A DNA stretch of 64,000 nucleotides from Lysobacterales bacterium (lineage in GTDB: Bacteria; Pseudomonadota; Gammaproteobacteria; Xanthomonadales; SZUA-36): the NCBI GenBank assembly GCA_041601535.1, contig JBFIHZ010000001.1:457-64456 (forward strand), in the 5' to 3' direction. The translations under genes were made by a program, and so were the position numbers. Positions 6,775-41,577 of this stretch are shown here, piece after piece. Below the pieces are notes generated by a model. The model saw nothing but the letters and a program-made list of their open reading frames with translations. It searched no databases and was not told the origin of the DNA. Position 1 is the stretch's first letter. The number at the start of each line of letters is the position of its first letter.

Positions 6775-7380
6775 ATGGTCATTTCGCATAAATACCGTTT
6801 TATCTTCATCAAAACCATCAAAACGGCCGGTACCAGTATCGAGGCCTGGTTATCGCCGCGTTGTGGCGCTGAAGATATATTCACGCCGGTTCAGCCGCCG
6901 GTGGAGGGGCATACTCCGAGGAATTTTGGCCGCCTGTATAATCATTTTTCCGCCTGGGGACTGCGTCAGCTGGTTCCGCCGGAAGTCTGGAATGGTTATT
7001 TCAAGTTCTGCGTGGAACGCAATCCCTGGGACAAAACCGTGTCCGACTATGCCATGCAGGCTCACCGCAGCGGCGGTCAGTTAAGCTTTGAGCAATACCT
7101 GCAAGCCGGGCGCTTCTGCAAAAGCTGGGAGCTGTACACCGACACCGATAACCGAACCGTTCTGGTGGACAGGGTACTGCGTTATGAAAACCTCAATGCC
7201 GAACTGGGTGAAGTCTTCCAGAACCTGGGGCTGCCCTGGGAAGGCGAGCTGGGCGTGTATGCCAAGTCCGGCTACCGCCAGAACCGCAAGCCATACCCGG
7301 AATACTACAACGAGCAACAGAAACAGTTGATCGCCCGGGCTTTCAAAGACGAAATTGATGCGTTTGGCTATGCCTTCTGA
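6775..7380 (+). CDS. Sulfotransferase family 2-like protein
   Basis: N-terminal HKYRFIFIKTIKTAGTSIEAWL (5'-phosphosulfate-binding loop), ERNPWDKTVSDY (RxPxDxxxS 3'-phosphate motif) and C-terminal LRYENLNAELGEVFQNLGL motif. Confidence 0.72.
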   Translation: MVISHKYRFIFIKTIKTAGTSIEAWLSPRCGAEDIFTPVQPPVEGHTPRNFGRLYNHFSAWGLRQLVPPEVWNGYFKFCVERNPWDKTVSDYAMQAHRSGGQLSFEQYLQAGRFCKSWELYTDTDNRTVLVDRVLRYENLNAELGEVFQNLGLPWEGELGVYAKSGYRQNRKPYPEYYNEQQKQLIARAFKDEIDAFGYAF

Positions 7381-8338: not shown

Positions 8339-8935
8339 ATGACGGACAATACGGTTGCCGCACTGTTTGGTATTTATGATCGTGCCCTGAGTGCGGAGTT
8401 TTGCCGTGACGTGATCCAGCGGTTTGAGAACGACCCACGCAAAACCCGCGGCAAGGTGGGTGAAGGTGCATACCGCCCCGATTTCAAGGGCACCACGGAA
8501 ATAGATTTTGCGGATATCCGTCAGGGCTGGGAAGACGTGATCAATACCGTCAACCAGAGTCTGATGCTGCACTTGCGGCAATATATGAAGCAGTGGAGTG
8601 AGGCGTTCCAGTCGGTGGAAGTGCATCACGAAGGGTTTCGCATGGCTCGCTACAACCCCGGTGAGCAGTTCAATTGGCATTCGGACAATATCGGTAGTTC
8701 CTTCACCCGGGTGATGACGGTAATGTGGTATCTCAACACCGTGGAAGAAGGCGGTGAGACCGATTACAAGTGGATGGGTCAGGCCATCAAGCCGGTCGAA
8801 GGGCGCATGATGATCTGCCCTGTGGGCTGGCCGTTTTTTCACCGTGGTGCGCCGCCGGTGAGCGGGCCCAAATACACCATCATCACCCAATTGCATCAGA
8901 AGCGCCGGGTGGCGCAGGCCAATACGGGTAGCTGA
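8339..8935 (+). CDS. Fe(II)/2-oxoglutarate-dependent oxygenase, prolyl-4-hydroxylase-like
   Basis: RYNPGEQFNWHSDN (HxD), WYLNTVEEGGETDY and FFHRGAPPVSGPKYTIIT (distal His, basic residue). ATG 8339 with GAGG 9 nt upstream. The ORF track starts at TTG 8330. Confidence 0.72.
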   Translation: MTDNTVAALFGIYDRALSAEFCRDVIQRFENDPRKTRGKVGEGAYRPDFKGTTEIDFADIRQGWEDVINTVNQSLMLHLRQYMKQWSEAFQSVEVHHEGFRMARYNPGEQFNWHSDNIGSSFTRVMTVMWYLNTVEEGGETDYKWMGQAIKPVEGRMMICPVGWPFFHRGAPPVSGPKYTIITQLHQKRRVAQANTGS

Positions 8936-8959: not shown

Positions 8960-9916
8960 ATGACGCAAAGCGGCCACCGGGAATGGGAAAATTACTGGAA
9001 TGAGCCGCGGCTTGCCGCCTGCATGCGTAATGAAGAGGGAAACTACGGCGGCGTGATTGGCCAGGAATGGCACCGGTTTTTCACCTCCCTGCAGAAGCAT
9101 AGCCTGGTGGTGGATCTGGCCACCGGCAACGGTGCCATTGCGCTGTTGGCCCTGCAGGCATCAGACACCGCTGGCCTGGACTTGCAGGTCTGTGGCGTTG
9201 ATGCGGTCGATATTGACCCTGCCCGGGTGCTGCCGCAACTTGCCGGTCAACTGCAAAGAATCAATTTCATAGGCAATACGCAGATGGAGCATTTGCCGTT
9301 TGCAGACCGTTCGGTGCACGCGGTTTCCGGACAGTACGCCCTGGAGTATTCCGACATGGACCTCACCATTGCCGAAATTGCCCGGGTACTGGCGGATTCA
9401 GGCCGGTTGAAATTCATCAGCCATACAACCTCTTCCGCGGTGTACGCAGCCACCCTGAAGCAGCTGCAGGAAATTTCCCAGCTGGAAGGCTGGGACCTGA
9501 CGGGCCGGGTGCAGAAAATGGTGCAAACAGAGCCAGGCACCAGTCCGCATGAACGGGCAAAAAGGGCATTCGGCCGTTGTGCATGCGAAGCCATGCATGC
9601 ACTGGACCGGGCAGAGGGGCAGAACCGTGTATTCCTCACCCAGTTCCTGGCCCGGTTGGGTGAAATTTACCAGCATCGTCACGACCAGCGGAAGAAAAAG
9701 ACTCTGGCTGAACTCAGCGACGTCGATGCTGATTTGAAAGCCCATCAATTACGCCTGGAAAGCCTGCGCAAAGCGGCCCTGAACAAGCCGGCCATCGCCG
9801 CATGTGAACAACTGCTGCAACGTTGTGGATTCTGCCTGCAAGATTCAAGGTCTGTACGCGAGGCGCCGGACCGGCGCCCACTGGGCCATTGTTTTGAAGC
9901 CAGCCTGATCCACTGA
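8960..9916 (+). CDS. Class I SAM-dependent methyltransferase
   Basis: Motif I VVDLATGNGAIA and post-I/II region (FADRSVHAVSGQYALEY). The C-terminal ~150 aa helical extension is of unknown function. Confidence 0.72.
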   Translation: MTQSGHREWENYWNEPRLAACMRNEEGNYGGVIGQEWHRFFTSLQKHSLVVDLATGNGAIALLALQASDTAGLDLQVCGVDAVDIDPARVLPQLAGQLQRINFIGNTQMEHLPFADRSVHAVSGQYALEYSDMDLTIAEIARVLADSGRLKFISHTTSSAVYAATLKQLQEISQLEGWDLTGRVQKMVQTEPGTSPHERAKRAFGRCACEAMHALDRAEGQNRVFLTQFLARLGEIYQHRHDQRKKKTLAELSDVDADLKAHQLRLESLRKAALNKPAIAACEQLLQRCGFCLQDSRSVREAPDRRPLGHCFEASLIH

Positions 9917-9941: not shown

Positions 9942-11009
9942 GTGAAACTGTCCGCCCCACCGGATTCAAGCCAGTCTGACCTTGTCAGTCCGGACTGGTT
10001 TCTGGCCGGTATCGACCCACCGCATGACCGCTTCCATTTCGCCCGCGTCAGCCAGCAAACCTACCGCGATTCCGCTTTTCTCGATCACCGGATCACACCC
10101 CGGCCAAGTGAGATGCGGTCACTGACCGCTGAGCAACTCTGCCTGCAGTCAGCATCCGCCAGCAATTCTCCGGCCGCATGGATTTTTCACACCGCTTTTT
10201 GCTGTTCTACGCTGTTGGCGTTTTGCCTGGATCAGCCGCAGCACACGCTGGTGCTGCGCGAGCCTGCAGTCGCCTCGTCACTGGCGCAGTGGCTGCGCGA
10301 GCATGGCGAAGAATCCTGGGATGGCGGTGCACGACATGTAATGGCCCTGTTGTCCAGATCGTATGCACAGCAGCAGGTGCTGATCAAGCCGTCCAACTAC
10401 GCCAATGCATTGCTGGGCGGAGTCCTGTCAGGCCGCTGGCTGGATTCCGCCGCCGGGCACGCCCCGCGCTGCCTGTTGATGAGCAGCAACCTCAACAACC
10501 TGGTGGTTTCCGTGCTGAAGAAAAGCACGGAAGCCGCCCGTTTGTTGCCCGGCTTTCTGCAGTCGCTGATGGTGGATAGCGATTACGCTGACAGGCTGAA
10601 CCTGCCCGCCCTGGACCGTCTGGACCTGGCGCAGCAGGCCGTGCTGTTCTGGCATTGCCAGCGCTATCACTTCCAGCAGGTCATGCATGGCCAGCCCTCG
10701 GGCAACTACCAGGCCCTGACCATGGAAGCGTTCCTGGCCTCTCCGGAAGAAACCTTGCACAGCGTGGACACGTTTCTGCATCTGGGCTTGGGACCGGAGC
10801 GCATTCATCAAACCGTTGTGGCTGGTGCGTTTGGCAGGCATTCCAAGGCCGGTGGCACCTACAGTCCGCAGCAGCAACGTGCAGAGGCCCTTCAGGTCAG
10901 TTCGAAATTCGGCGCTGAAATCACCGCGGCCCGGCAGTGGGCCCGGCCATTCTTGCGTGAATTGCCGGTTGAGCCACTGACACCGCAGGAAGACCCATTT
11001 GCCGAATAA
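9942..11009 (+). CDS. Sulfotransferase-fold paralog with degenerate cofactor loops (putative pseudo-enzyme)
   Basis: IFHTAFCCSTLLAFCL aligns with IHHMARTGGTLICRCL of the 7370 gene. LMSSNLNNLVVSVL replaces RxPxDxxxS. It keeps the C-terminal LTMEAFLASPEETLHSVDTFLHLGL motif. GTG start, no clear RBS. Confidence 0.5.
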   Translation: MKLSAPPDSSQSDLVSPDWFLAGIDPPHDRFHFARVSQQTYRDSAFLDHRITPRPSEMRSLTAEQLCLQSASASNSPAAWIFHTAFCCSTLLAFCLDQPQHTLVLREPAVASSLAQWLREHGEESWDGGARHVMALLSRSYAQQQVLIKPSNYANALLGGVLSGRWLDSAAGHAPRCLLMSSNLNNLVVSVLKKSTEAARLLPGFLQSLMVDSDYADRLNLPALDRLDLAQQAVLFWHCQRYHFQQVMHGQPSGNYQALTMEAFLASPEETLHSVDTFLHLGLGPERIHQTVVAGAFGRHSKAGGTYSPQQQRAEALQVSSKFGAEITAARQWARPFLRELPVEPLTPQEDPFAE

Positions 11010-25892: not shown

Positions 25893-27147
25893 AAGCCGGA
25901 TAATCCTGTCGTTCCTGTTGTTTGGCACTGTGCTCAGTGCCCTGTTCGCGCTGAGCACACTGTCTTTGCAAAATTATCTTGAAGACCAGTTGATTGGGGC
26001 CACGCTCAAACAGGAGCTGGATGACTACGTCAACCAGTTACGCCTCGACCCCACCGTGGTGGAGCCGTTCTATACCCGCATCCAGGGTTATATCACCCGG
26101 CCGGGTGATCCCAACCAGACGGTCAGCGCCCAGGTGCGCGAGCTGCCTAGCGGGGTGCATGACGTGCGCATCAACAACGGTTACTTCAAGGCGGCGGTGC
26201 GCAAGGAAGATGATTTGTGGGCTTTCCTTATTTACGACGTCAGTGACAACCAGCTGCTGAAAAAGCAGCTGGTATTCGCGCTTGTTGGCGTAGTGCTGTT
26301 GTTCTCGGTGTTTTCGTTTACTTTGGGTGCCTGGTCTTCGCGTCGCGTGATGAAGCCGGTAACCGACCTTGCCAATCGTCTGGACATGCTGAGTGAGGAG
26401 CGCACGCCAGATCGCCTGGCCCATCATTTTGCCGATGATGAAGTGGGTCAGCTGGCAGCGGCGCTGGACAGTTATGCCGACCGCCTGCACGACCTGGTGG
26501 AGCGTGATCGCGAATTCAACGCCGATGTCAGCCATGAACTGCGTTCACCGCTGACCGTGATAACCGGCGCCACCGAGTTGCTGTTGGCGCAGCGCGATCT
26601 GCCGCCCAAGGTGCGCACCCGCATGCTGCGCATAGCGCGCGCGGCCAGGCAGTCCGCCGATATTACCTCGGCGCTGCTGCACCTGGTGCGTGCAGAGCAG
26701 GGCACCGACAAGGATACGGCTGCCCAGAACGTTGGCCAGGTGGTGAACGAAGTGGTTCACCTGTACGAGCCGCTGATTGGCAATAAAGATCTCCGCTTCC
26801 TGGTGCGCGAAGAGGAAAAGGTCAGTGTCATCGCACCGGAGTCCGTGCTGGCCGTGACGGTGGGTAACCTGATAGGCAACGCCATGCGCTACACCGCCAG
26901 TGGTGAAGTGCTGATCACCATTGGCAACGGCAAGGCCGTGGTGGAAGACACCGGCCCCGGAATTCCCGAAGAAGAACTGGAACACGTATTTGACCGTCAT
27001 TATCGCGGCCAGAACATCACCGGCAAGGGCGCGGGATTGGGGCTGGCCATCGTCAAGCGCTTGTGTGAGCTGTATGGCTGGTCGGTGCATTTCAGTAACC
27101 GCGAGACCGGCGGCTTGCGGGCGGAATTGCGATTTTTTGGCAGTTGA
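25870..27147 (+). CDS. Membrane sensor histidine kinase (HAMP-HisKA-HATPase)
   Basis: Two TM segments, H-box DVSHELRSPLTVI, N-box GNAMRYT, G1 VEDTGPGI, G2 GAGLGLAIVKRL. Overlaps the regulator gene by 23 nt. Confidence 0.9.
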   Translation: MQYRHRLRSRIILSFLLFGTVLSALFALSTLSLQNYLEDQLIGATLKQELDDYVNQLRLDPTVVEPFYTRIQGYITRPGDPNQTVSAQVRELPSGVHDVRINNGYFKAAVRKEDDLWAFLIYDVSDNQLLKKQLVFALVGVVLLFSVFSFTLGAWSSRRVMKPVTDLANRLDMLSEERTPDRLAHHFADDEVGQLAAALDSYADRLHDLVERDREFNADVSHELRSPLTVITGATELLLAQRDLPPKVRTRMLRIARAARQSADITSALLHLVRAEQGTDKDTAAQNVGQVVNEVVHLYEPLIGNKDLRFLVREEEKVSVIAPESVLAVTVGNLIGNAMRYTASGEVLITIGNGKAVVEDTGPGIPEEELEHVFDRHYRGQNITGKGAGLGLAIVKRLCELYGWSVHFSNRETGGLRAELRFFGS

Positions 27148-27259
27148 TTCAGTGGCCGGTACTCAATCACCGCGCCTGCTGGAGCATGCCGGGCCGAGTC
27201 TTGCACTGCAGGCCAAGCCCCGCTAACGTGTCACCCCAGACCATAGAAGTGGAACGTGT

Positions 27260-27610
27260 ATGAGCATCATTTCCTGCCCGCAGTGCGGTAAAAAAATTTC
27301 CAGCATGGTGTCCCTCTGCCCGCATTGTGGTTTCGAGCTGGGGGAGGTTTCCGACGATGACCTGCTGGTGTTCCGGCAGCGTCAGGCCCGTGAGAAGGTC
27401 TATCGCCTGAATATGTACAGTTATGTGGTCATTACCATTTTCGTGGCGGCTTTTGGCTGGTATTGGTGGAGCACCAGGGGGTTTCAGCAACCATCCGGCA
27501 GTGGGCCATTCATCCTGATGGGTTTGAGTGCGGTGGCTTACCTCGGAGTGCGGGTTTTCCTGTTCCAGGCCAAGCGCAAACACAAAGAGCTCAAACGTCA
27601 GCTATTGTGA
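27260..27610 (+). CDS. Zinc-ribbon membrane protein (2 TM)
   Basis: CPQCGKK...CPHCGF zinc-ribbon at the N-terminus, then two hydrophobic helices. Confidence 0.6.
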   Translation: MSIISCPQCGKKISSMVSLCPHCGFELGEVSDDDLLVFRQRQAREKVYRLNMYSYVVITIFVAAFGWYWWSTRGFQQPSGSGPFILMGLSAVAYLGVRVFLFQAKRKHKELKRQLL

Positions 27611-27675
27611 GCGGAATGCTGTCTGGGTGCTGCTCTTGCCCGGACCCGGGCAAACCGGTTTAACGAGGTGTAGAA

Positions 27676-28413
27676 ATGTCGCGGCCTAAAGTGGAGTTTT
27701 TTACCGAACACGAGGAGTTGCTTGATTTTCCGCCGATTGCGGCCCGCAAGGCGCTGCCGGAGTGGTTCAGGCAGATGGCGCCCTCCATTGATTTGCCTCC
27801 CAGTAACACACGGTTTCCTTTTGGCTTGTCCAAGGCCTTACGCCTGTCCAATGTCAATGCAACCATCCGGCGTTGCCCGGGGATAATTTCCTACCTGTCA
27901 GAAGGCTATCTGATCCCGCTGTGGACTGATTTCCTGGTCCAGGTAAGGGGCAAGACAGTTTATGCCGTAGGTTCCAATGAACTGGCGCATGCATCGCCGC
28001 ACAGCAAGCAGATGCAATATGACACCATGCCGCTGCCGGATGATTACCTGGCTGATTCGGTGAAATTCACCAATCCCTGGAAAGTGCGCACGCCGCCGGG
28101 GTGGTCGGTGTTGCTGTCGCAGCCGTTCTACCATTTTGAGCAACGCTTTACCGTGGTGCCTGGCGTGGTGGATGCTGATGCCTATCACCACATTCACGTC
28201 AATACCTTTTTCCGCAAAGGCGACCGCGACCACCAGCTGAAAATGGGCATGCCGTTTGTGCATGTGCTGCCGTTCCAGCGCAGTCAGCTGGAACTGGAGG
28301 TACGGGCCATGACCGATGCCGATCGCAAGCGCATGAAGCGGCTGGATTTCAAGGCCAAGCGTTTTTTTGGCAAGAACGCGGCCATCCGCGGGCTGGCTGA
28401 CAGCGAGGATTAG
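27676..28413 (+). CDS. Conserved hypothetical protein (245 aa), family not recognised with confidence
   Basis: Good RBS (GAGGTG) and coding-like composition. Motifs RRCPGIISYLSEGYLIPLWTDF and PGWSVLLSQP...HHIHVNTFF. No assignable function. Confidence 0.6.
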   Translation: MSRPKVEFFTEHEELLDFPPIAARKALPEWFRQMAPSIDLPPSNTRFPFGLSKALRLSNVNATIRRCPGIISYLSEGYLIPLWTDFLVQVRGKTVYAVGSNELAHASPHSKQMQYDTMPLPDDYLADSVKFTNPWKVRTPPGWSVLLSQPFYHFEQRFTVVPGVVDADAYHHIHVNTFFRKGDRDHQLKMGMPFVHVLPFQRSQLELEVRAMTDADRKRMKRLDFKAKRFFGKNAAIRGLADSED

Positions 28414-28423
28414 GCCGGCCGCA

Positions 28424-28447
28424 AGCCCGGCGTGAGGTAGCCGGGCT
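28424..28447. terminator. Hairpin between convergent genes
   Basis: AGCCCGGC (28424-28431) / 8-nt loop / GCCGGGCT (28440-28447). No T-tract. Confidence 0.4.
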
Positions 28448-28474
28448 GATGGTGACTTGCAGCGGGGAATCGCG

Positions 28475-28963
28475 TTACTGGATGCGTTCTACCCGAACCT
28501 TGGAGTTGTAGCCTTCCACCTTCAGTTGCCAGGTGCGGAACGCATGGGGCTCAATGGTAACCAGCGGGTTCTGAATCGCACGGATGTAGAATTTGTCTTT
28601 ATCGGCCTGTTGCCAGATCATGCCGTTTTCCAGCTTGAACGTGGTCTGGCCGTCCCAGCCGGTAAACGAACCCACGATTCGGCTGGTGATGGTGGTGCGG
28701 TCCATGTTTTTCATGTTCTTGACTTCGAAGCCGCGCGTATCACCACCGCCGGCGGCGCCGGGTTTGGCCGCATCCAGCGTGACCAGTGAGCGGCTGCGTA
28801 TCCAGCTATTAAGCGCTTCCAGCTCTTCCGGGGTGAGTTTGTCCAGCCCGGCAGCGCTGTATTCCTTGCCGCTCATTTGCTCTTCCAGGGAAGAAAAGGC
28901 CTGTTGCGCCATGGCGGGCGAGGCGGCTGTCATAATCAAAATCGCAATCAGCAGTTTTTTCAT
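28475..28963 (-). CDS. Small secreted protein of unknown function (163 aa)
   Basis: Signal peptide MKKLLIAILIMTAASPAMAQQ. I prefer ATG 28963; the N-terminal extension to 29248 would overlap the upstream sulfotransferase gene. Confidence 0.6.
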   Translation of the reverse strand: MKKLLIAILIMTAASPAMAQQAFSSLEEQMSGKEYSAAGLDKLTPEELEALNSWIRSRSLVTLDAAKPGAAGGGDTRGFEVKNMKNMDRTTITSRIVGSFTGWDGQTTFKLENGMIWQQADKDKFYIRAIQNPLVTIEPHAFRTWQLKVEGYNSKVRVERIQ

Positions 28964-29058
28964 CGTGTAACCTTCAGGGACAAACCGGCGCAAGTTTATC
29001 ATGATCGTGCAGTAGTTCGATGCATTGTTCCATTTTCTGCAACGCTGCTGCACCACGG

Positions 29059-30699
29059 TCAGGCTGGCGGGTAACCAAAGTGCCTGACCCATGGAGTCAG
29101 AAAAGCCTGCGCGGGTTCCATTTGCTGTTGATAATTTTTCCATCTGCCAATGGCACGGATGTACAACGGCTGGGCAACCTGGTGATAACTGGGTGTGGCG
29201 ATATGCTGCTGCAGATGCTGGCGATAGTTCATCACGCCTTGATCCCAATCCAGCCCGAGAAACCGTATCAATGGCCGCATCTGACCCGCAAAATCGTCCA
29301 CCAGTTGTTCGTACCGGATGGTATGCCGCGGGTTGGAAATAATGTCCAGTGACGACGTGGCTAGGCGCATCAGCTGGTCGTAATACCTCACGGTATCCAT
29401 CAAGTCCAGGAAATAAGGCATGGCACCGGTCAGTTCAAAGGTCTGAAAGAAACAGGACAGGCAGGCGTCACGCGGATCGCGCAGGGCCACGATGATGTGT
29501 GCTGCCGGAAAAAGCCGGTGAATCAGCGCCAGGTAAGCGATATTCAGTGGCAGCTTGTCCACCACGATGCGGCGTTGCGGGTGCTGGCGATGGCTGTTCA
29601 TCGCGGCCAGGTATTCCTCCCGCGCCGCCCGGAGGTGTTCGGGCTGCAGGTTTGCCAGGCCAGGTGCGCCTTCCTGTTCGAGCCATCGCTGGCGGGCCGG
29701 CGCGAGCAATTCAAGCTCCTCCAGCACTTCAATATCGGGGTGAGCGGCCAGCGCCTGATGCAGCAATGTCGTGCCGGAACGGGGAAATCCCACCAGGAAC
29801 ACCGGTGAACCGGCAGGTTTGCCGGCAGCCTCTTCCCCCGGCTCTCCGCCATGCGCTGACCAGTTGCTTGGCGGATTCTGCCGCAGCCAGTCCGACAGAC
29901 GCCCCAGTGTGCTGATGCCATAGCTGCCGTTATCGTCCGGCTGGCCACAGGGGTGGTGGTTGCGCAGGATCAGGTTGCTCTCGCTAAAACAGGCGAAGGC
30001 TTGTGTATAGGCGCCCTGCTGGTCATGGCTTTGGCCCATCTGGTTCAGGGTAATGCTGCGATTCAAGGCCGAAGGCTGATCACGCAAAACGGCTGTCAAT
30101 CGCTCCTGGGCCTGCGCATGCTGGCCCTGGCGGCGATCCAGTGTGGCCCGGGTCAGGTTGGCCATAAAGTTGTCCGGAGCCAGCTGCAGCGCCTGGTCGG
30201 CCAGCTTGCCAGCTTCTTCCAGCTTGTTGGCGCGTTCCAGCAAGAATGCCAGGTTGGCGGCCGCATCAGCGTGGCGGGGCATCAGCTCCAGAACTCTTTG
30301 ATAATGCCGCATGGCCTGCTCAGGCAGTTGCAGCTGGGTCATGCAGCGGCCCAGCTCATAATGGGCATCTGTATCGAATCCACTGCGTTCCGCCGCTTTC
30401 TGCAAAGGCGGTACGGCTTGTTCAAACTGGCCCTGTTGGCGCAGCAGCCGGCCCAGCCACAGCGCGGCATGATGATTTTCCGGACTCGCTTGCCAGGCCG
30501 TGTGTAAGTCGGCTACGGCCTGATCATGCTGGCCAAGTTGGGCTGCGGCCAGTCCGCGCAAATGGAAAGCCGCAGCCGTGGCGGCGGCAGGCACCCCGCT
30601 GCCACCGAGAACTTTGTCGCACAAGGCCTGACAGCCTGGTGCATCGGACGCGTTAAGCCGCTCGGCGGCCTGCTGTAAATTGGCCTGATAGTCCGCCAC
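29059..30699 (-). CDS. TPR-repeat sulfotransferase
   Basis: N-terminal ~270 aa of TPR-like repeats, then VFLVGFPRSGTTLLHQALAAHPDI (PAPS loop), ALRDPRDACLSCF (RxPxDxxxS) and IRYEQLVDDFAGQMRPLIRFLGL. GTG start. Confidence 0.82.
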   Translation of the reverse strand: MADYQANLQQAAERLNASDAPGCQALCDKVLGGSGVPAAATAAAFHLRGLAAAQLGQHDQAVADLHTAWQASPENHHAALWLGRLLRQQGQFEQAVPPLQKAAERSGFDTDAHYELGRCMTQLQLPEQAMRHYQRVLELMPRHADAAANLAFLLERANKLEEAGKLADQALQLAPDNFMANLTRATLDRRQGQHAQAQERLTAVLRDQPSALNRSITLNQMGQSHDQQGAYTQAFACFSESNLILRNHHPCGQPDDNGSYGISTLGRLSDWLRQNPPSNWSAHGGEPGEEAAGKPAGSPVFLVGFPRSGTTLLHQALAAHPDIEVLEELELLAPARQRWLEQEGAPGLANLQPEHLRAAREEYLAAMNSHRQHPQRRIVVDKLPLNIAYLALIHRLFPAAHIIVALRDPRDACLSCFFQTFELTGAMPYFLDLMDTVRYYDQLMRLATSSLDIISNPRHTIRYEQLVDDFAGQMRPLIRFLGLDWDQGVMNYRQHLQQHIATPSYHQVAQPLYIRAIGRWKNYQQQMEPAQAFLTPWVRHFGYPPA

Positions 30700-30757
30700 C
30701 TGGTTACCTGGTAAACGCAGCGTCCGGACAGCGGCTGTGGTCTGGAGTGTTCAATGG

Positions 30758-31318
30758 CTACCACAGTGTGTAGGTGCTGAGAATGTACTTGGCGTTGCTG
30801 ACCGGCGGCCGTCCGGCGTGACGGTACATCCAGTAGGGAGGAAACATCAGCAAGGAACCAGCAGTAGGCGCAATGCGGGTTTGCAGATCCACAAACTCGG
30901 TTTCGCCACCATCCGCCACATCGTTGAGGTACCACAAGAACACCAGGTAACGATCGGCGACCTCACGAATGGAGTCAAAATGCGGCTGAAAGCGGTCGTT
31001 ACCACCCGGGTCATAACGCTTGATGATAAAAGGCGCCAGGGCTCCGGCTTCAGGCAATGCCGGGCGGATGCCGCAATCGGTTTCATAGCGGGCCTTGTAG
31101 TGGCGCAGACAATTGTTGAGGATGTTGTGGCAATTGAGTGACTGACATTCCGCCAGGTCCATTTCCAGCCAGCTGCTTTCCGCCAGACCGCTGCGGATGC
31201 TGGCGCCATTGCGCTGCTGTTTGGCTGGGTCCGATTCAAACCACGCCACCACCCGGGCACAGAAATCAGACGTCAGGGCATCCTTGTATACACGAATGTA
31301 ATGCCGCAGGTCCGTCAT
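30758..31318 (-). CDS. Fe(II)/2-oxoglutarate-dependent oxygenase, paralog of the 8339-8935 gene
   Basis: RYDPGGNDRFQPHFDS (HxD), WYLNDVADGGETEF, MYRHAGRPPVSNAKYILST. Strong RBS GGAGAGAG. Confidence 0.74.
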   Translation of the reverse strand: MTDLRHYIRVYKDALTSDFCARVVAWFESDPAKQQRNGASIRSGLAESSWLEMDLAECQSLNCHNILNNCLRHYKARYETDCGIRPALPEAGALAPFIIKRYDPGGNDRFQPHFDSIREVADRYLVFLWYLNDVADGGETEFVDLQTRIAPTAGSLLMFPPYWMYRHAGRPPVSNAKYILSTYTLW

Positions 31319-31353
31319 TGGGGCAAACTCTCTCCAAAGGGCAACAGACGGGT

Positions 31354-31359
31354 ATTATA
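31354..31359 (-). promoter_or_regulatory. TATAAT (minus strand), candidate -10 for the oxygenase/TPR-sulfotransferase unit
   Basis: ATTATA on the + strand reads TATAAT on the - strand, 35 nt upstream of ATG 31318. The -35 is poor (GGAACC-like). Confidence 0.3.
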
Positions 31360-31441
31360 GGCCAGCGGAAGCGCTCTGGTTCCGGCGCATCCGGGTGTTG
31401 GCGCACGGTAAAGTCCAGAAGCTGAAACAGAAACAGAAAGC

Positions 31442-32611
31442 TCAGAGGTCCTGCTGGTAACGGACGTAGGGGATGCGGCCGTAAATCGATTCAAACCGGT
31501 CGGCTGTCTCATCTGCCCCCGGGCGGTCATCCACGCCGGCGCCCAACACATTGCTGGCGCCAACACTCAGGTTGGCGTTCCAGGGGGTGCGCCAGGTGAA
31601 GTGCACGTCAAAGGTGCTCATGCTGTTCAGTGAGCCCTGGTTCAGGAAGTTGACCGAATCCCGGTAATATCCACGAATGCCGCTGCTGAATGATCCACGC
31701 TGCCATTCCAGGCCGAGACTTGCGGCATTGAATGGCTCGGCCAGGTTCCAGCTCAGTGGCCCCAGGCTGCTTCCATAGAAGCTGTCATAGTGGGCATCAA
31801 ACACGCGAGTCAGTGCCAGCCCCAAATGCAGATCACCGGCATTATCCGTGGTAATGCCAAGCTGGAAACTCAGGTCGATGCCCGTGGTTTCGCTGTTCAT
31901 CAGCGATGCCGTATTCATTCCAGGCATCAGCAGGTTGGCCGGTAATTGCGTCATCAGGCCGCTATCCAGCAAGGGCGATGGTGCCTGGACATTTGGCTGA
32001 AGAGCGGGCGTAGCGCCAGAGTTGAATTCCGAGGTAAACCAGTTAACCGCCGAAGTAAAACCGCCCAGCTGGAAATCCGCGCCCAGTTGCAAGGTCCGCC
32101 GGTCAAACAAGGGGGCTGACTGGTTAACAAAGCGGCATCCGGAAGCCGTATAGGAATCAGGTCCCAGGGTGCCATTCATGCACTGGATGCTGCCCAGTGA
32201 CTGGAACGGCGCCTGGCTGGTGACGTGCTGCACGCCGCCAGTGATGTTCAGCTGCGGACTCAGCGGCACGTTCAGACTGGCACCCAGGCCCAGCATGCTG
32301 GTACCCGACGCGCTGGATTGCAGGTGGCTGCCTGGCTCCAGTATCAACGGGTGGGACAGCTGTAACTGCAGCTTGCGGGTTTCACTGCCACCCAGGTCAA
32401 ATTCGAATGCGCTGCTTGCCGGATCGAGCACCATCGGCGTGCCCGGGTGAGGCATGCGCGCCTGGTTCGGGTTGGCGTGGGCCGCTTTGAGTAAATGAGA
32501 GCGGCTGGATCTTGAATCGTCCGCCACCGCCGGCACAGAAACGAGGCAAAACAGTGCCGTGGCCACACAGGCCATTCTCACTGGTTTAAACTGTCTGCTG
32601 CTGCGCCGCAT
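31442..32611 (-). CDS. Putative outer-membrane beta-barrel protein (unknown family)
   Basis: Signal peptide ...ATALFCLVSVPAVADD. Gly/Ser/Asn/aromatic-rich alternating pattern throughout. No family motif recognised. Confidence 0.5.
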   Translation of the reverse strand: MRRSSRQFKPVRMACVATALFCLVSVPAVADDSRSSRSHLLKAAHANPNQARMPHPGTPMVLDPASSAFEFDLGGSETRKLQLQLSHPLILEPGSHLQSSASGTSMLGLGASLNVPLSPQLNITGGVQHVTSQAPFQSLGSIQCMNGTLGPDSYTASGCRFVNQSAPLFDRRTLQLGADFQLGGFTSAVNWFTSEFNSGATPALQPNVQAPSPLLDSGLMTQLPANLLMPGMNTASLMNSETTGIDLSFQLGITTDNAGDLHLGLALTRVFDAHYDSFYGSSLGPLSWNLAEPFNAASLGLEWQRGSFSSGIRGYYRDSVNFLNQGSLNSMSTFDVHFTWRTPWNANLSVGASNVLGAGVDDRPGADETADRFESIYGRIPYVRYQQDL

Positions 32612-32717
32612 TGCCGGTTTTGCCTTTATTCCGCCGAGTGAACAGGTAGTTCCTGAGTCTTGGAAAGCGGAGTTGCTTAAAAGTTTAACTCAATCATAGC
32701 AAAAAACGTGCAAAATC

Positions 32718-32733
32718 ACGTAATAAATTACGT
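32718..32733. promoter_or_regulatory. Inverted repeat ACGTAAT-AA-ATTACGT
   Basis: Perfect 7-bp arms with a 2-nt spacer in an AT-rich divergent intergenic region, 70 nt upstream of ATG 32803. Confidence 0.3.
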
Positions 32734-32802
32734 CAGACGGGCGTTTGGGGGCGTTGAACGGACCCATTTCCCGCCCCAACCCAAACAGTGGAACCGAAAA
32801 TT

Positions 32803-33354
32803 ATGGTTTTAACGCATACCCCGACCCTGCAGAGCGGCTTTATGGCGCCGGATTTCAGCCTGCCTGGCACCGATGGAAAACACTGGAGCCGGCAGCAATG
32901 CCAGGGCGAAAAAGGCCTGTTGGTGATGTTCATTTCCAATCATTGCCCCTATGTGCAGGCTATTAATCACAAGCTGGTCAGGGATGCCGGCGAGCTGATG
33001 GATCTGGGCATCGGCTGCGTTGCCATCATGCCGAATGACGTTGCATCCTATCCGGCCGATTCGCTGGATAACATGCGTCGGGTCAAAGCGGAGCACTCCT
33101 ACCCTTTTCCCTACCTGATCGATGAAACGCAGGAAGTGGCACAGGCTTATGGTGCGGTGTGTACGCCAGACTTTTTCGGCTTCAACAGCAAGCTGGAGTT
33201 ACAGTACCGCGGCCGCCTGGATGCCAGCGGCAACAAGACTGACCAGGGTCAGGCGCCACGCGAGTTGTACCAGGCCATGAAACAGGTTGCCGCAACCGGC
33301 CGCGGTCCGGAACAACAGTTTTCATCCATGGGGTGCTCGATCAAGTGGCGTTGA
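32803..33354 (+). CDS. Thioredoxin-fold (AhpC/TSA-like) protein
   Basis: APDFSLPGTDGKHWS...LLVMFISNHCPYV...CTPDFFGF. Confidence 0.8.
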   Translation: MVLTHTPTLQSGFMAPDFSLPGTDGKHWSRQQCQGEKGLLVMFISNHCPYVQAINHKLVRDAGELMDLGIGCVAIMPNDVASYPADSLDNMRRVKAEHSYPFPYLIDETQEVAQAYGAVCTPDFFGFNSKLELQYRGRLDASGNKTDQGQAPRELYQAMKQVAATGRGPEQQFSSMGCSIKWR

Positions 33355-33467
33355 TTTACCGCCGCCCACCACCCCGAATCACACAAGCGGCTGTGACTGG
33401 GTTAGTATTAACGCCGTTTTTTCAGTGCAGCTTCGCACACGATACAGAACTGTAGGCGGGAGAAACC

Positions 33468-33902
33468 ATGAACCAATTACTTCTGGTAGGAATTGACTGC
33501 AGTAATTGCAGTCAGCGCGCCATTGACTATGCAGCGGCCTGGGCAGAGTCTACCGGGGCCAGGTTGGCCGTCGTGCACGTCATCGAGTGGTCACCGTACT
33601 CTTTCAGTACTGCGATGGAAAATGAAGTGCGCCACAAGCGCAGGGAAGAGGAGCTGACGCGCGCGCACAAGGAGATTGTTGATCCGGTGGTTGAATCGCT
33701 GCGCGCCCGCGGCATTGAAGTCGAGGGGATTATCCGCCATGGCCACCCGGCCGAGACCATCAACCAGCTGGCCATCGATATGGATGCTGCCAATATCGTG
33801 GTAGGGCGCAAGGGGACGTCGCGCCTGAAGTCACATCTGTTTGGCAGCGTACCCAGCATGTTGGTGCAAATAGCGGAAACGCCGGTAACAGTGGTTCCAT
33901 AA
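33468..33902 (+). CDS. Universal stress protein (UspA family)
   Basis: LLVGIDCS...A, LAVVHVIE and the C-terminal ATP-binding motif [23 protein letters not shown]. Confidence 0.85.
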
Positions 33903-33924
33903 GCAGCTTCGTCCGGAGAAATTC

Positions 33925-35460
33925 ATGTTAAAAATCAAAAACCTGATTTTGTTGTTACTGGTGCTGCCGGTTTCAGTATTTGCCCAGGAGGGCATAGACA
34001 GCCAGATTGACAACGCGGTACGACCCTTTGCCAACGCGGTGTCCGGTTTCATTTTTTCTTCTTTTCCTGTTGCTGGTGTACAGATACCGTTTGTGCTGGT
34101 GTGGCTGATCGTTGCAGCTACGTTTTTTACGTTTTATTTCCGCTTTATCAACTTGCGGGCCATGGGCCACGGCTTTGCGCTGGTCCGGGGTGATTACAGC
34201 GATCCGACAGCGGCGGGTGAGGTTACGCATTTCCAGGCATTGGCCACGGCTCTGTCCGGCACGGTCGGGCTGGGGAATATCGCAGGGGTAGCGGTTGCTG
34301 TATCGCTGGGCGGCCCGGGCGCCACCTTCTGGATGATTGTTGCCGGCTTCCTCGGCATGTCATCAAAGTTCGTGGAATGCACGCTGGGCGTGAAATACCG
34401 CAATGAATATACCGATGGCTCGGTATCCGGCGGACCGATGTATTACCTGTCCAAGGGGCTGGCGGAACGCAGCGACAAGCTCAAGACCCTGGGCAAGATA
34501 CTGGCCGTGATGTTCGCCATTTTCTGCATTGGCGGTTCATTTGGCGGTGGCAACATGTTTCAGGCCAATCAAAGCTTCAAGCAGGTGCTGTCCGTCACGG
34601 GCGGAGACGCCAGCTGGCTGGCTGACAAGGGCTGGCTGTTTGGCGTGGTGGTGGCCACCCTGGTGGGGCTGGTCATTATCGGTGGAATCCAGGGCATTGC
34701 ACGGGTGACTTCAAAAATCGTGCCCTTTATGGCGATTATTTATGTATCGGCAGGGCTGCTGATTATTTTTATGAATATTACCGCAGTGCCTGCGGCTTTC
34801 GTGGCCATTTTCAACGGCGCATTCAGCCCGGAGGGAATGGCCGGCGGTGTGGTTGGCGTGCTGTTCCAGGGCTTCAAGCGGGCGGCGTTTTCCAATGAAG
34901 CCGGCATCGGTTCGGCGGCCATTGCCCATTCGGCGGTCAAGACCAACCGGCCCATTACCGAAGGCTTTGTTGCCTTGTACGAACCGTTTGTCGATACCAT
35001 CGTGGTCTGCACCATCACCGCACTGGTCATCATCATCACCGGCACCTGGGACCCGAACGTTGATCCCAGCCAGGGCGTTTCGCTTACCTCCCAGGCCTTT
35101 GAGTCTGCCATTTCCTGGTTCCCATGGGTGCTGACCGTCGCGGTGGTGTTATTTGCTTTCTCAACCATGATTTCCTGGTCTTATTACGGGCTCAAGGCCT
35201 GGACCTACCTGTTTGGCGATTCGCTGATCACCGATATTGTGTACAAGGTTCTGTTCCTGTTCTTCGTGGTTGTTGGTGCTTCAATGCAGCTCGGTTCAGT
35301 GATCGATTTTTCGGATGCGATGATATTTGCCATGGCATTTCCCAACATCATTGGCATTTACTTCCTGGTACCGGTAGTGCGTAAAGAGCTGGATGAGTAC
35401 TGGGCTGATTTCAAAGCCGGACGGCTGCAAAAGTTCGGACGAGCGGCACGCCGCGGCTGA
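33925..35460 (+). CDS. Alanine/glycine:cation symporter (AGCS family)
   Basis: Polytopic. Motifs [35 protein letters not shown] and [17 protein letters not shown]. Confidence 0.9.
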
Positions 35461-39873: not shown

Positions 39874-41577
39874 TCAGCTTCCGTTTTCACCGTCCGATGC
39901 ATAGCGGCGGTCAGTCGCTGCCAGTGCGTCAAAGAATTCCGGCGCGTGCTGCCGGTAGTGTTGCCAGCGTGCCACCGATGCCTGGTGTACCGGTTGCCGT
40001 GCTTGCCAGCTGCTGGCCGTGCGCACCGCACGGGCGTGCTGCTGGGAGCTGTCCATTGATGCGGTCCACTCAAGCCCGAGAAATTCCAGCACGGTTTTAA
40101 GCGTCGCGGCAGGCGCAGTCACCAGGTCCTCATAGGCCAGGGAGTGAATGCGTTCAGGGGCCTGGTCCTGCCAGAAAGACATGATGGAGCGGTATCCCGC
40201 GTAGTAGTCCTCAAGATCATCCAGGCGGTTGGCGAATCCGGCATCCGCGTGCTGGAACAACTGGCAGAAACAAGACAGGCAGCTGTCGCGGCCATCGCGG
40301 CTGAGGTGGAGAATTTTTGCTTCGGGCATTACCGTCAGCAGGAAACCGACAAAGCGAAAATTCAGCGGATTCTTGTCTATGTAAATATGATCACCCGGCC
40401 CGTCCAGTTGTAAATGCGTCCACAGTTCATCGGCAATGGCCGACCGCTCGGCGGATGACAACGCGTGTGCCGGCCCGTGTCGCGTGGCCAAGTGTGACAG
40501 GAAATTGAGTTCGCCCCGGCCAGTAATCCGCTCATGCCGGTCCAGCAGCTGTTCCAGCAAGGTCGTTCCGGAGCGCAGCATGCCCATGATATAGACCGGC
40601 TGGCGGCCGCCGCGGGCGGGCCTGAGCTGCCGTGCGTGGCTTGCGGCGACGGGTTGCAATGCGGTATCGCGCTGCCGGTGCCAGCCACTGCGGTCCCAGG
40701 GCTGGGCCTGGTGGCGCAGCCGGTTGCCGCGCACAAAGGCTTGCCAGGCATCGCCCCAGCTGCCTAAATCATCCAGCGCCTTGCCCCGTGCGAATGCCAG
40801 GCACATGTCCGCTTCCGGGCCCAGCGATGATTGCGCGGCTAGCTGGATGCGCTGCCAGTCCGCGTTTTCACGCGACTCAAAGCGTTGCAGCTGGGCCAGG
40901 TTAAGCCACGCGCCGCCCAGGCCGGGGTCAGCGTCCAGTGCATTTCGATAGTGATCCAGTGCGGGTTCGAATTGCCCCAGCGATTGATGCAGCCGTGCCA
41001 CGCGAAAATGCAGGCCGGCGTCAGCGGGCGCGAGTTGCAGCGCCATGTTCATGGTGCTAATGGCTGCCGTCGCCTGGTGGCTGTCGCGCAGGAATCCGCT
41101 GACCTTCAACAGGCAGGTCAGATTGTGCCGCTGGTGCCGCGCCAGCGACAGCAGCGCCTCCGCTGCCTTGCCGGTCTGACCCTGCTCACGCAGCAGGTAG
41201 GCCAGCGCGAACGCGGCGTTCTCATCGCCCGGTTGTTCTGCCAGTAATTGAACCAACAGCGATTCGGCCCCGGCGGGCTGGCCGTTCAGCCGCCGTGCAT
41301 TGGCCAGCCAATAGCGCGCTTCGCGGCTTTGCGGCGCCTGCCGCACGGCCGCTTCAAGATGACCTGCCGCTTCACCGCCGCGTTGCTGCTCAACGGCCCT
41401 GATGCCTGCTTCCAGTTGTCGTTGCCAGTCGGTATCGCTCACGTGCCGGGCCTGTGGTTGGTTTTTCCCGCCCAAGCATAACTGCTCATCCCGGCGCCCG
41501 AAACGGTTTGTGCGGAATGTCATATCAAGTGGGTATAATCGGGTGTATGAAAAAAGACCAAGATCCGATTGCTTCAA
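39874..41577 (-). CDS. TPR-repeat sulfotransferase (second copy), inserted between pgk and pyk
   Basis: TPR-like N-terminal half, then VYIMGMLRSGTTLLEQLLDRHERI, LSRDGRDSCLSCF and LAYEDLVTAPAATLKTVLEFLGL. Start uncertain: maximal ORF 41577, ATG 41523, or GTG 41442, which would leave 104 nt to pyk. Confidence 0.8.
   Translation of the reverse strand: MKQSDLGLFSYTRLYPLDMTFRTNRFGRRDEQLCLGGKNQPQARHVSDTDWQRQLEAGIRAVEQQRGGEAAGHLEAAVRQAPQSREARYWLANARRLNGQPAGAESLLVQLLAEQPGDENAAFALAYLLREQGQTGKAAEALLSLARHQRHNLTCLLKVSGFLRDSHQATAAISTMNMALQLAPADAGLHFRVARLHQSLGQFEPALDHYRNALDADPGLGGAWLNLAQLQRFESRENADWQRIQLAAQSSLGPEADMCLAFARGKALDDLGSWGDAWQAFVRGNRLRHQAQPWDRSGWHRQRDTALQPVAASHARQLRPARGGRQPVYIMGMLRSGTTLLEQLLDRHERITGRGELNFLSHLATRHGPAHALSSAERSAIADELWTHLQLDGPGDHIYIDKNPLNFRFVGFLLTVMPEAKILHLSRDGRDSCLSCFCQLFQHADAGFANRLDDLEDYYAGYRSIMSFWQDQAPERIHSLAYEDLVTAPAATLKTVLEFLGLEWTASMDSSQQHARAVRTASSWQARQPVHQASVARWQHYRQHAPEFFDALAATDRRYASDGENGS

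Follow-up and report, generated by a model that had tools for sequence, protein, structure and literature searches.

Whether a dioxygenase and a sulfotransferase encoded side by side act together, and on which substrate, is the question raised by a locus within the 64,000-nucleotide stretch of Lysobacterales DNA that we analysed (hereafter the window). The gene for Oxy2, a P4H-like Fe(II)/2-oxoglutarate (2OG) dioxygenase of 186 aa (30758-31318), is followed on the minus strand by a gap of 58 nt (30700-30757) and the gene for a TPR-sulfotransferase of 546 aa (29059-30699). A 95-nt spacer (28964-29058) then leads to sec163 (28475-28963, minus strand), which encodes a Sec-signal-peptide protein of 162 aa (about 162-163). 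The other neighbour of Oxy2 is OMP389 (31442..32611, minus strand), encoding a 389-aa signal-peptide outer-membrane beta-barrel protein, and a DUF6065-like gene of 245 aa lies on the plus strand (27676..28413), convergent with sec163. The coordinates and gap lengths that the initial annotation gave for the oxygenase, sulfotransferase and secreted-protein genes were all verified. Its regulatory elements fared less well: the proposed TATAAT is present at 31354-31359 on the minus strand, within the 123-nt spacer between OMP389 and Oxy2 (31319..31441), but a promoter scan finds no -35 partner, and the spacer is unconserved, shrinking to 31-49 nt in two relatives. The "strong" ribosome-binding site ascribed to Oxy2 corresponds to GGAGAG, about 12-17 nt 5' of the start, and is one of the weaker points of that annotation.

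Oxy2 matched PF13640 in a Pfam profile search (E 5e-11, 43.8 bits, cut-off 27), the sole domain found in it; it has no PKHD_C domain and no NCBIfam match. It has the iron-binding HxD...H triad together with a basic residue: H113, D115, H167 and K177 are invariant among 51 homologues, K177 being assigned as the 2OG ligand by its position alone. The AF2 model (pLDDT 92.7) had its best fold matches among peptidyl-prolyl 4-hydroxylases, namely PBCV-1 vCPH, human C-P4H-II, Bacillus anthracis P4H, PHD2 and Pseudomonas PPHD. Of the 50 best PDB matches, with E values down to 4e-11, almost all were peptidyl-prolyl hydroxylases, the exceptions including PiuC (rank 31) and the lysyl hydroxylase LH3. Oxy2 shares with these 4-hydroxylases the double-stranded beta-helix (TM 0.6-0.75), the triad and a Lys positioned for 2OG, but is only 14-21% identical to them and has no peptide-substrate-binding domain. 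A signal peptide is absent from both Oxy2 and the TPR-sulfotransferase, and Oxy2 is taken to be a cytoplasmic P4H-like Fe(II)/2OG oxygenase with putative prolyl hydroxylase activity. Relatives are also found in cyanophages, whose auxiliary 2OG-Fe(II) oxygenases (phrog_61, 1.7e-36; these genes include those of the Syn9 dioxygenase/halogenase array) are 37-39% identical to Oxy2 over its full length, although they are phage-borne and have no TPR-sulfotransferase partner there.

The sulfotransferase domain of the second enzyme (residues 299-546, 29062..29805) was recognised as Sulfotransfer_3 over residues 299-486 (PF13469, E 6e-39, 135 bits), and the catalytic domain (residues 300-546) aligned over its whole length with animal TPST1/2 (E 1e-14 to 1e-16). 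The 5'-PSB loop PRSGTT is conserved, RDPRD...S lies opposite the TPST 3'-PB motif RDGR...S, and EE and DK lie opposite GEE and NK, aligning the catalytic Glu and Lys. The enzyme is thus predicted, from these alignments, to be a PAPS-dependent sulfotransferase of the TPST/RaxST type that sulfates tyrosine. Unlike TPST, which resides in the Golgi lumen, it is soluble and cytoplasmic and carries a TPR array of about 200-250 aa (about residues 40-240, 29980..30582), matched by multiple Pfam TPR families. This array is presumed to be a docking module, and among solved structures it most resembles consensus TPR proteins and the corresponding domain of O-GlcNAc transferase (OGT), itself a protein-modifying enzyme. 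RaxST shows that, within the same bacterial order, Tyr can be sulfated in the cytoplasm ahead of export, but the window's sulfotransferase differs from RaxST in its surroundings, since neither a RaxX-like precursor nor a peptidase-containing, RaxABC-type ABC exporter was found among the ORFs at 26000-34000 or among the conserved neighbour families of 80 loci.

The initial annotation regarded the oxygenase and the sulfotransferase as a functional couple, and this view was borne out by distant genomes. Among 72 loci with Oxy2 orthologues of 46-55% identity, a sulfotransferase gene lies within 100 bp of the orthologue in 59 and within 2.5 kb in 64. In 33 loci it precedes the oxygenase gene in the same orientation, and in 27 it is downstream and convergent; a third arrangement, downstream on the same strand, is that of the window's family. 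In X. sacchari the two genes even share a 4-bp overlap. Because these genomes carry only 2-11 sulfotransferase-domain genes per 2.4-5.7 Mb, such adjacency is expected by chance in <1% of cases. The two families are therefore, with strong support, a conserved couple across Xanthomonadales-like Gammaproteobacteria. In the tree of sulfotransferases the window's enzyme falls outside the large clade formed by sulfotransferases with an oxygenase neighbour (a split with SH-aLRT 96), and we treat it as a putative counterpart, not a proven orthologue, of the Xanthomonas-type partner.

The same pairing had been thought to recur within the window, which proved to be partly the case. Oxy1 (8339..8935, plus strand), in a separate island with a TonB receptor gene (3645-6623), has a PF13640 match in Pfam and is a genuine paralogue of Oxy2 (BLASTP 30% identity, E 6e-24, including the sequence blocks originally quoted), but the presumed island sulfotransferases are only marginal in Pfam, with no match for 6775-7380 and E 0.0066 for 7355-8194. 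In relatives, Oxy1 orthologues stay 18-26 kb from Oxy2.

What else accompanies the couple was assessed in a wider set of 80 loci by clustering non-overlapping ORFs of at least 45 aa within 5 kb. This yielded only sulfotransferase, oxygenase, TonB-dependent receptor, AspH-type and sulfotransferase-like families. Within 2.5 kb of the Oxy2 orthologue there is a TonB-dependent receptor in 42 of the 80 loci and a TPR-AspH hydroxylase in 26; a barrel gene encoding the conserved tail described below precedes the orthologue in the same orientation in 27, and in Xanthomonas-type loci an OMP389-type barrel gene heads clusters of the order OMP-TBDR-ST-Oxy. No scaffold-synthesis, exporter, inner-membrane transporter or precursor-peptide genes are conserved across the 80 loci, nor was a RiPP-like maturation system (a small precursor with a protease or exporter) found there. 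The window's locus and the syntenic loci of its family have no TonB receptor.

Such neighbourhoods, joining TonB receptors, 2OG dioxygenases and sulfotransferases, were predicted by Iyer, Abhiman, de Souza and Aravind (NAR 2010, PMC2938197). The passages of that paper drawn on here tie classical 2OG-Fe dioxygenases, including relatives of the cyanophage Syn9 oxygenases, to P-loop sulfotransferases, and link TonB receptors and beta-hydroxylases to them, as is the case in the orthologous loci; those clusters and the present locus are alike known from computational prediction. The window's copy differs in being a two-gene cassette that has no TonB receptor and lies between genes for a non-TonB barrel and a small secreted protein. 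Judged against the same passages, it is a receptor-less variant of these hydroxylase/sulfotransferase clusters, and they do not describe the pairing of a 186-aa P4H-like enzyme with a TPR-TPST-like one or its presence/absence polymorphism (PMC2938197).

This polymorphism is seen in four states at the site among 22 genomes examined. Five genomes (G000, G002, G003, G007 and G020) have both enzyme genes, G013 has only Oxy2 and G006 only the TPR-sulfotransferase (538 aa), each of them intact, and the remaining 15 have neither; given the single-gene states, the couple is not strictly obligate. Comparison of G003 with G021, a genome of the same genus without the cassette, reveals a clean 2.3-kb indel directly after the OMP stop codon, with no mobility genes or repeats seen at its borders. 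The sequence of the 95-nt spacer stands directly after this stop codon in G021 and after the sulfotransferase stop in G003, and we therefore regard 28964..29058 as the ancestral OMP389-sec163 intergenic region. The flanking-gene tree demands at least three changes for each enzyme gene. In this lineage the enzyme couple is an optional indel unit between the barrel gene and the sec163 gene. The DUF6065-like gene is the second variable gene at the locus and possibly a third accessory component, being present in all six Oxy2-carrying genomes and in G021 but missing from the other 34 relatives. It matches phrog_7084 (E 1e-45), and its homologue gp43 of cyanophage Syn9 is encoded between two tryptophan halogenases and the 2OG oxygenase array.

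On balance, Oxy2 and the TPR-sulfotransferase probably constitute a facultative two-enzyme tailoring cassette that places two independent marks on a common, likely protein or peptide, substrate. Oxy2 would act as a cytoplasmic dioxygenase of the peptidyl-prolyl-4-hydroxylase type and add a hydroxyl group, and the sulfotransferase, also cytoplasmic, would put sulfate from PAPS onto an existing hydroxyl, such as that of a Tyr side chain, while its TPR array would dock the substrate. Both marks may be placed independently on one common substrate in the cytoplasm, and our best guess is that this would be the precursor of an envelope protein encoded beside the cassette.

Fold and family likeness cannot fix the class of substrate. 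A protein or peptide is nevertheless more likely than a small molecule, because TPST-like, P4H-like and AspH-like enzymes are protein modifiers, two of them with TPR fusions, and because no genes for scaffold synthesis, export, inner-membrane transport or a precursor peptide are conserved in the 80 loci. The original argument that the TPR domain indicates a protein or peptide substrate is thus plausible, given the TPST-like domain, the OGT-like TPR array and the peptidyl hydroxylase fold, although its application to sec163 is not supported.

The strongest competitor, though unlikely, is that the pair hydroxylates and sulfates a metabolite (a siderophore-like or amino-acid-derived product of the cell itself, or an imported nutrient) that passes through the neighbouring outer-membrane proteins, in line with the model of Iyer et al. 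and with models 1-3 put forward for CciT-CciO. TonB-linked dioxygenases such as PiuC and CciO are often held to act on small molecules. In CciT-CciO of Caulobacter, PiuA-PiuC of Pseudomonas and Fiu-YbiX of E. coli, a TonB-dependent transporter is accompanied by an adjacent cytoplasmic PF13640 dioxygenase, and CciT strictly needs CciO (PMC12004947); for the reading preferred above, too, this is an earlier case of a receptor reliant on a P4H-like dioxygenase in the cytoplasm. CciT has been proposed to import iron bound to a self-made compound, which CciO perhaps synthesises or processes (PMC12004947), and siderophore-like products are among the predictions for the TonB/2OG-dioxygenase/sulfotransferase neighbourhoods in the passages cited above (PMC2938197). 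The present system resembles the CciT-CciO type in that there is genetic coupling between a cytoplasmic dioxygenase of the P4H fold and a protein for uptake across the outer membrane, and in that PiuC is itself a fold match of Oxy2; just over half of the orthologue loci (42 of 80) have a TonB-dependent receptor within 2.5 kb. However, Oxy2 is shorter than PiuC, YbiX and CciO, does not contain their PKHD_C domain and is coupled first to a sulfotransferase, with no adjacent receptor. Against a metabolite also stand the lack of any conserved scaffold-forming enzyme, exporter or inner-membrane transporter in the loci, the TPST-like and TPR-fused nature of the sulfotransferase, and the nearest folds of the oxygenase, which are all those of peptidyl hydroxylases.

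A further possibility, fairly improbable in our judgement, is an obligatory relay in which the hydroxyl made by Oxy2, as in 4-hydroxyproline, is itself the site that the sulfotransferase sulfates; such a scheme would suit either class of substrate. Hydroxylation followed by sulfation is explicitly predicted in the consulted part of the work of Iyer et al. (PMC2938197), and the dependence between the two genes is asymmetric, as Oxy2-type genes are nearly always near a sulfotransferase, whereas only one of about 13 sulfotransferase-domain genes in the window's genome has an Oxy2-type neighbour. Yet the intact sulfotransferase of G006 persists at the same site with no Oxy2 orthologue elsewhere in that genome, and tyrosine sulfotransferases are the enzymes that the catalytic domain most resembles. 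Because the single-gene states are intact and the Tyr acceptor of a TPST-type enzyme needs no prior hydroxylation, independent marks are more likely than a relay.

If the independent marks are placed on an envelope protein encoded nearby, the candidates are OMP389 and sec163. With cytoplasmic enzymes and Sec-exported neighbours, modification would be required before export, and protein modification preceding export is unusual. OMP389 is the constant, single-copy upstream neighbour of the cassette, and sec163 is the constant partner of OMP389 on the downstream side. Its C-terminal 100 residues match NCBIfam XOO1806_fam (E 2e-16, below the family cut-off), and AF2 models the protein as an all-beta barrel (mean pLDDT 62.8) that matches just generic porin, FadL and TonB-dependent receptor barrels, at a TM of about 0.3. 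Six of the eight invariant columns in a 32-sequence alignment fall in the tail PYVRYQQDL (31442..31471 with the stop, minus strand), which is modelled as the last beta-strand. Only one ORF in the 4.1-Mb genome has this ending, and 35 of 41 relatives have the tail a single time in their genome, whether or not the enzymes are present. In the form PYVRYxQDL, the tail contains one Pro, two Tyr and one Asp, and residues of these kinds are modified by enzymes resembling P4H, TPST and AspH. A free C-terminal peptide is also what TPR domains of the "carboxylate clamp" type classically bind. That adjacent enzymes covalently mark outer-membrane beta-barrel precursors in the cytoplasm before Sec export, the XOO1806-like barrel here and a TonB-dependent receptor elsewhere, is a long shot. 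The barrel and sec163 are both kept, without the enzymes, in most relatives, and in some lineages the enzyme pair occurs without a tail-bearing barrel (13 of 20 genomes), which argues that no adjacent protein is an obligate partner.

Still more doubtful is the proposal of the initial annotation, which had singled out the co-directional secreted protein as a candidate substrate, to be hydroxylated and sulfated before or during export. By inspection, sec163 begins with a Sec signal peptide (MKKLLIAILIMTAASPAMA/QQ); it has no match in Pfam or NCBIfam, and its 614 homologues are all named hypothetical or "secreted protein". It does follow the sulfotransferase gene at 95 nt, co-directionally, in all five full-cassette genomes, and lies between variable genes, with the DUF6065-like gene to one side and the two enzyme genes to the other. 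Its linker is variable and often Pro-rich, as in PEHTPPAPASPGTSASPAPVPPAP of G013, where Oxy2 lies directly upstream. However, sec163 immediately follows the barrel gene, and both enzyme genes are absent, in about 14-15 genomes (15 of 22 at the site; 13 of the same family and 1 of another), is missing from all 72 distant oxygenase loci, and has distant homologues in other families with no module gene within 6 kb. The one Tyr that it has in acidic, unstructured surroundings (KEYSAAG) is replaced by Phe in each of nine homologues compared, no invariant Pro lies outside its folded domain, and the protein is Sec-exported whereas the enzymes are cytoplasmic. Finally, it is very improbable that the two genes have no functional link and co-travel as a mobile or recombining block, as the cassette-like presence/absence at a fixed site with at least three changes per gene might suggest, since their adjacency outlasts three arrangements and about 50% sequence divergence in several families, extends to a gene overlap in X. 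sacchari, and is unaccompanied by mobility genes or repeats at the indel borders.

Clusters that join outer-membrane receptors with cytoplasmic relatives of animal protein hydroxylases and of tyrosine sulfotransferases occur widely, and their prediction dates from 2010. The locus described here is a minimal, receptor-free form of the enzyme couple, and it provides a natural experiment, in which a single site, between genes for the same two exported proteins, holds both enzyme genes, either one alone or none, depending on the close relative. As one full-cassette carrier is a cultured strain (Elongatibacter sediminis CH-27) and four natural states exist at one site, comparison of their proteomes or metabolomes could reveal the substrate directly. 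Should barrel precursors prove to be the target, the optional cassette would fine-tune how a barrel that is otherwise universal is made or how it works.

Four genes follow one another on the minus strand of the window (C1:457-64456 of a 4.1-Mb assembly in 482 contigs): OMP389, an XOO1806-like outer-membrane barrel of 389 aa with a signal peptide (31442-32611); Oxy2, a 186-aa P4H-like Fe(II)/2OG oxygenase (30758-31318; Pfam 2OG-FeII_Oxy_3, 43.8 bits); TPR-ST, a 546-aa TPR-sulfotransferase (29059-30699; several Pfam TPR families and Sulfotransfer_3, 135 bits); and sec163, a secreted protein of 162 aa with a signal peptide (28475-28963). The intergenic gaps are 123, 58 and 95 nt, respectively. 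The gene order and features reported in the initial annotation were confirmed with the exception of the promoter. The TATAAT at 31354-31359 is present in the sequence, but it has no -35 partner and lies in a spacer which is neither conserved nor constant in length among relatives, and a promoter belonging to the Oxy2/TPR-ST cassette itself was therefore rejected. The proposed paralogy between Oxy2 and the oxygenase of the island, a separate TonB-receptor module in the window, also held, as Oxy2 and the protein encoded at 8339-8935 share 30% identity (E 6e-24) and the blocks listed previously fall inside the alignment. Pfam and NCBIfam gave nothing useful for sec163 or OMP389, nor for two genes of the island (6775-7380 and 9942-11009). 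Three plus-strand genes immediately precede the TonB receptor that heads this first island and may be its regulators; they encode an ECF sigma factor (1233-1808), a candidate anti-sigma factor with no Pfam match (1808-2365) and a DUF4097 protein (2362-3243).

Judging from their sequences, both enzymes of the cassette are intact, with complete catalytic motifs. Residues 300-546 of TPR-ST align end to end with animal TPST1/2 (E 1e-14 to 1e-16), conserving the PRSGTT loop, with Glu-Glu aligned to the GEE of TPST, Asp-Lys to Asn-Lys and RDPRD...S to RDGR...S. For the TPR part, the closest natural counterpart is that of O-GlcNAc transferase. RaxST, the one characterised tyrosine sulfotransferase of bacteria that we found in the literature, would be of the same catalytic type as TPR-ST but occurs in a different context; we found no characterised bacterial TPR-sulfotransferase. 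In Oxy2, H113, D115, H167 and K177 are invariant in an alignment of 51 sequences. The best PDB fold matches to its predicted model (pLDDT 92.7) are almost all peptidyl-prolyl 4-hydroxylases, and include PBCV-1 vCPH, human C-P4H-II, B. anthracis P4H, Chlamydomonas P4H, PHD2 and P. putida PPHD, with the receptor-linked PiuC at rank 31. Oxy2 is not a member of the PiuC/CciO group, as it lacks the PKHD_C domain, and it has no curated family match. It is 37-39% identical to cyanophage 2OG oxygenases (461 phage records; family phrog_61).

The initial annotation had proposed that the oxygenase and the sulfotransferase form a functional couple, a claim which the comparison across genomes bears out. 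Scanning a single genome for each species gave 323 loci with an Oxy2 relative, of which the best 80 were taken with as much as 10 kb of flanking sequence on either side and searched by local tblastn with the window's proteins. Among 72 of these 80, a distant set whose oxygenases are 46-55% identical to Oxy2 and whose members belong to Xanthomonas, Stenotrophomonas, Lysobacter, Tahibacter, Dokdonella, Thermomonas, Luteimonas, Rhodanobacteraceae, Steroidobacteraceae, Nevskiaceae and Kangiella, a sulfotransferase-domain gene lies within 100 bp of the oxygenase in 59 loci and within 2.5 kb in 64. As the genomes examined carry 2-11 sulfotransferase-domain genes each, adjacency by chance would be expected in well under 1% of cases. 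The arrangement differs between loci: the sulfotransferase is upstream on the same strand in 33 (with the two genes overlapping by 4 bp in X. sacchari), downstream and convergent in 27, and downstream on the same strand in the window's family. Adjacency which outlasts both rearrangement and approximately 50% sequence divergence is strong evidence of a functional couple, and the Oxy2/TPR-ST pair is judged real and functionally coupled. The 150 best representatives, nearly all of them 100-240 aa long, included no oxygenase-sulfotransferase fusion of the Rosetta stone type.

Dependence within the couple is asymmetric. The window's genome has approximately 13 sulfotransferase-domain genes (for example on contigs C17, C66, C74, C159, C195, C209, C286, C300 and C404), only one of which has an Oxy2-type neighbour. 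A sulfotransferase-domain tree groups TPR-ST, together with three orthologues, among other paralogues from the genome and not within the large clade made up of sulfotransferases adjacent to an oxygenase (support for the split, 96). The tree gave no support to the window's enzyme being an orthologue of the Xanthomonas-type partner, and the sulfotransferase partner may have been exchanged. A third TPR-sulfotransferase (39874-41577, minus strand, 567 aa; Sulfotransfer_3 E 1e-39) is encoded antisense between pgk and pyk in a gap-pgk-pyk-fba glycolytic cluster and has no oxygenase partner; its orthologue is approximately 9 kb from Oxy2 in two related genomes, G003 and G007.

The couple is recurrently linked to outer-membrane uptake proteins, and among the best 80 loci a TonB-dependent receptor lies within 2.5 kb of the oxygenase in 42. 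A TPR-fused Asp/Asn beta-hydroxylase (TPR-AspH) is found within the same distance in 26 of the 80; the X. sacchari locus, for instance, reads 286-aa OMP, TonB receptor, TPR-sulfotransferase, oxygenase and convergent TPR-AspH. The window's genome has no TPR-AspH homologue, although this protein accompanies the pair in Xanthomonas-type loci. Clustering of neighbour families in the best 80 loci, with greedy ORF selection to remove the shadow ORFs abundant in these high-GC genomes, showed no further common gene family. Scaffold-forming enzymes, exporters, inner-membrane transporters and small precursors were all missing from the shared families, and the idea of a conserved exporter or precursor peptide was therefore discarded. 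In some genomes (loci L037 and L047, from Wenzhouxiangellaceae-like MAGs, and L063, L069, L079, L089 and L112) the Oxy2-type oxygenase adjoins homologues of the island genes for a 355-aa protein (9942-11009) and a methyltransferase (8960-9916), which replace or join the TPR-sulfotransferase. Parts of the two modules of the window are interchangeable in other genomes.

Closer to the window, Oxy2, TPR-ST and sec163 are colinear in four genomes of the same family (G002, G003, G007 and G020), but this is mere synteny of the whole region, which reads HK, zinc-ribbon protein, DUF6065-like gene, sec163, sulfotransferase, Oxy2, OMP389, Trx, USP. Equivalent sites were located through a degenerate DNA pattern for the OMP389 tail and fetched, and 22 genomes were examined. 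Both enzyme genes are present in the window's genome (G000) and in the same four relatives, an intact Oxy2 alone in G013, an intact 538-aa TPR-sulfotransferase alone in G006 and neither enzyme in 15 of the 22. Within a single genus, G003 and G021 differ by a clean indel starting just after the stop codon of the OMP gene, and the 95-nt gap upstream of sec163 is the ancestral OMP-sec163 spacer. In a tree of flanking genes, the five full-cassette genomes and G021 form one clade (support 99), and at least three changes are needed for each enzyme gene. The cassette is facultative at this site.

By inspection of their N-termini, neither Oxy2 nor TPR-ST has a signal peptide, and we infer that both would act in the cytoplasm on one common substrate. 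Hydroxylation and sulfation would then be independent marks rather than a relay, a reading favoured because each enzyme gene is intact where it occurs alone and because acceptors of the TPST type do not have to be hydroxylated first. A protein or peptide is the more likely substrate, since all three enzyme types (P4H-, TPST- and AspH-like) modify proteins, two of them have TPR arrays for docking, and genes for scaffold synthesis or transport are missing from the loci. The main rival is tailoring of a small molecule by the pair, which agrees with Iyer et al. 2010 and with the models put forward for CciT-CciO. Iyer et al. (PMC2938197) described gene neighbourhoods in which sulfotransferases and TonB-like receptors occur with classical 2OG dioxygenases, and proposed hydroxylation followed by sulfation; in Caulobacter, the TonB transporter CciT depends on the cytoplasmic dioxygenase CciO (Hernandez-Ortiz et al., PMC12004947).

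If the substrate is a protein, the barrel upstream of the cassette is one candidate; the literature searched contained no mention of XOO1806. An alignment of 32 sequences has eight invariant columns, and six of them lie in the C-terminal tail of OMP389 (31442-31471, minus strand; tail peptide GRIPYVRYQQDL), which ends in PYVRYQQDL, contains Pro, Tyr and Asp and follows a near-invariant family consensus, PYV(R/Q)YxQD(L/F)-stop. OMP389 is the sole ORF in the genome with this ending, and 35 of 41 relatives, among them all 25 members of the family, contain the pattern once and once only. It is unusual for an outer-membrane barrel to end in Leu instead of an aromatic amino acid, and free C-terminal peptides are classic ligands of TPR domains. 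Of the best 80 of the 323 loci, 27 have a tail-bearing barrel gene upstream and on the same strand, far more than chance would give for a single-copy gene. As an obligate substrate, the tail was rejected: 19 family genomes have the barrel but not Oxy2 (Oxy2 occurs in only 6 of the 25), the motif is missing in 13 of the 20 distant genomes that carry both enzymes, and the tail is modelled as the last beta-strand of the barrel in the predicted structure. A fold search with OMP389 returned only generic similarity to porins, FadL and TonB-dependent receptor barrels. The tail-bearing barrel is a facultative partner of the couple, and modification of a barrel precursor is a reading of low probability.

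The secreted protein, which the initial annotation had put forward as a substrate, is not supported in that role: sec163 directly follows OMP389 with no enzyme gene between them in 14 genomes (13 from the family that lack Oxy2, plus one from a different family), it has no homologue in any of the 72 distant oxygenase loci, and no module gene lies within 6 kb of its homologues outside the family (30-49% identity). G014, of the same family, lacks both the enzymes and sec163. Furthermore, sec163 has only one Tyr whose surroundings are acidic and unstructured (KEYSAAG), and each of the nine aligned homologues, cassette-adjacent ones included, has Phe at that position. The comparative evidence offers no reason to single out sec163, and the idea survives at low probability because its linker is variable and sometimes Pro-rich, and because the gene on its other flank is variable. 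The linker is short and Gly/Ala-rich in the window's protein; the G013 homologue (L028 5984-6541), preceded by Oxy2 alone, has a long Pro/Ala-rich one, PEHTPPAPASPGTSASPAPVPPAP. On the other flank, the DUF6065-like gene (27676-28413, plus strand; phrog_7084, E 1e-45) is confined to the six Oxy2-bearing genomes and G021. Its homologues are found in haloarchaeal tailed viruses and cyanophages, and in Syn9 one of them, gp43, has two tryptophan halogenases on one side and the phage's array of 2OG oxygenases on the other.

Taken together, this is an optional form, without a receptor, of a predicted, uncharacterised kind of gene cluster. The names carried by homologues put the genome in the Xanthomonadales/Lysobacterales, near Wenzhouxiangellaceae, and the Oxy2 of the cultured Elongatibacter sediminis (strain CH-27) is 71% identical to that of the window. 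The most useful new point is the natural polymorphism of four states beside two constant exported proteins, which, together with one full-cassette carrier in culture, makes the question of the substrate experimentally approachable.
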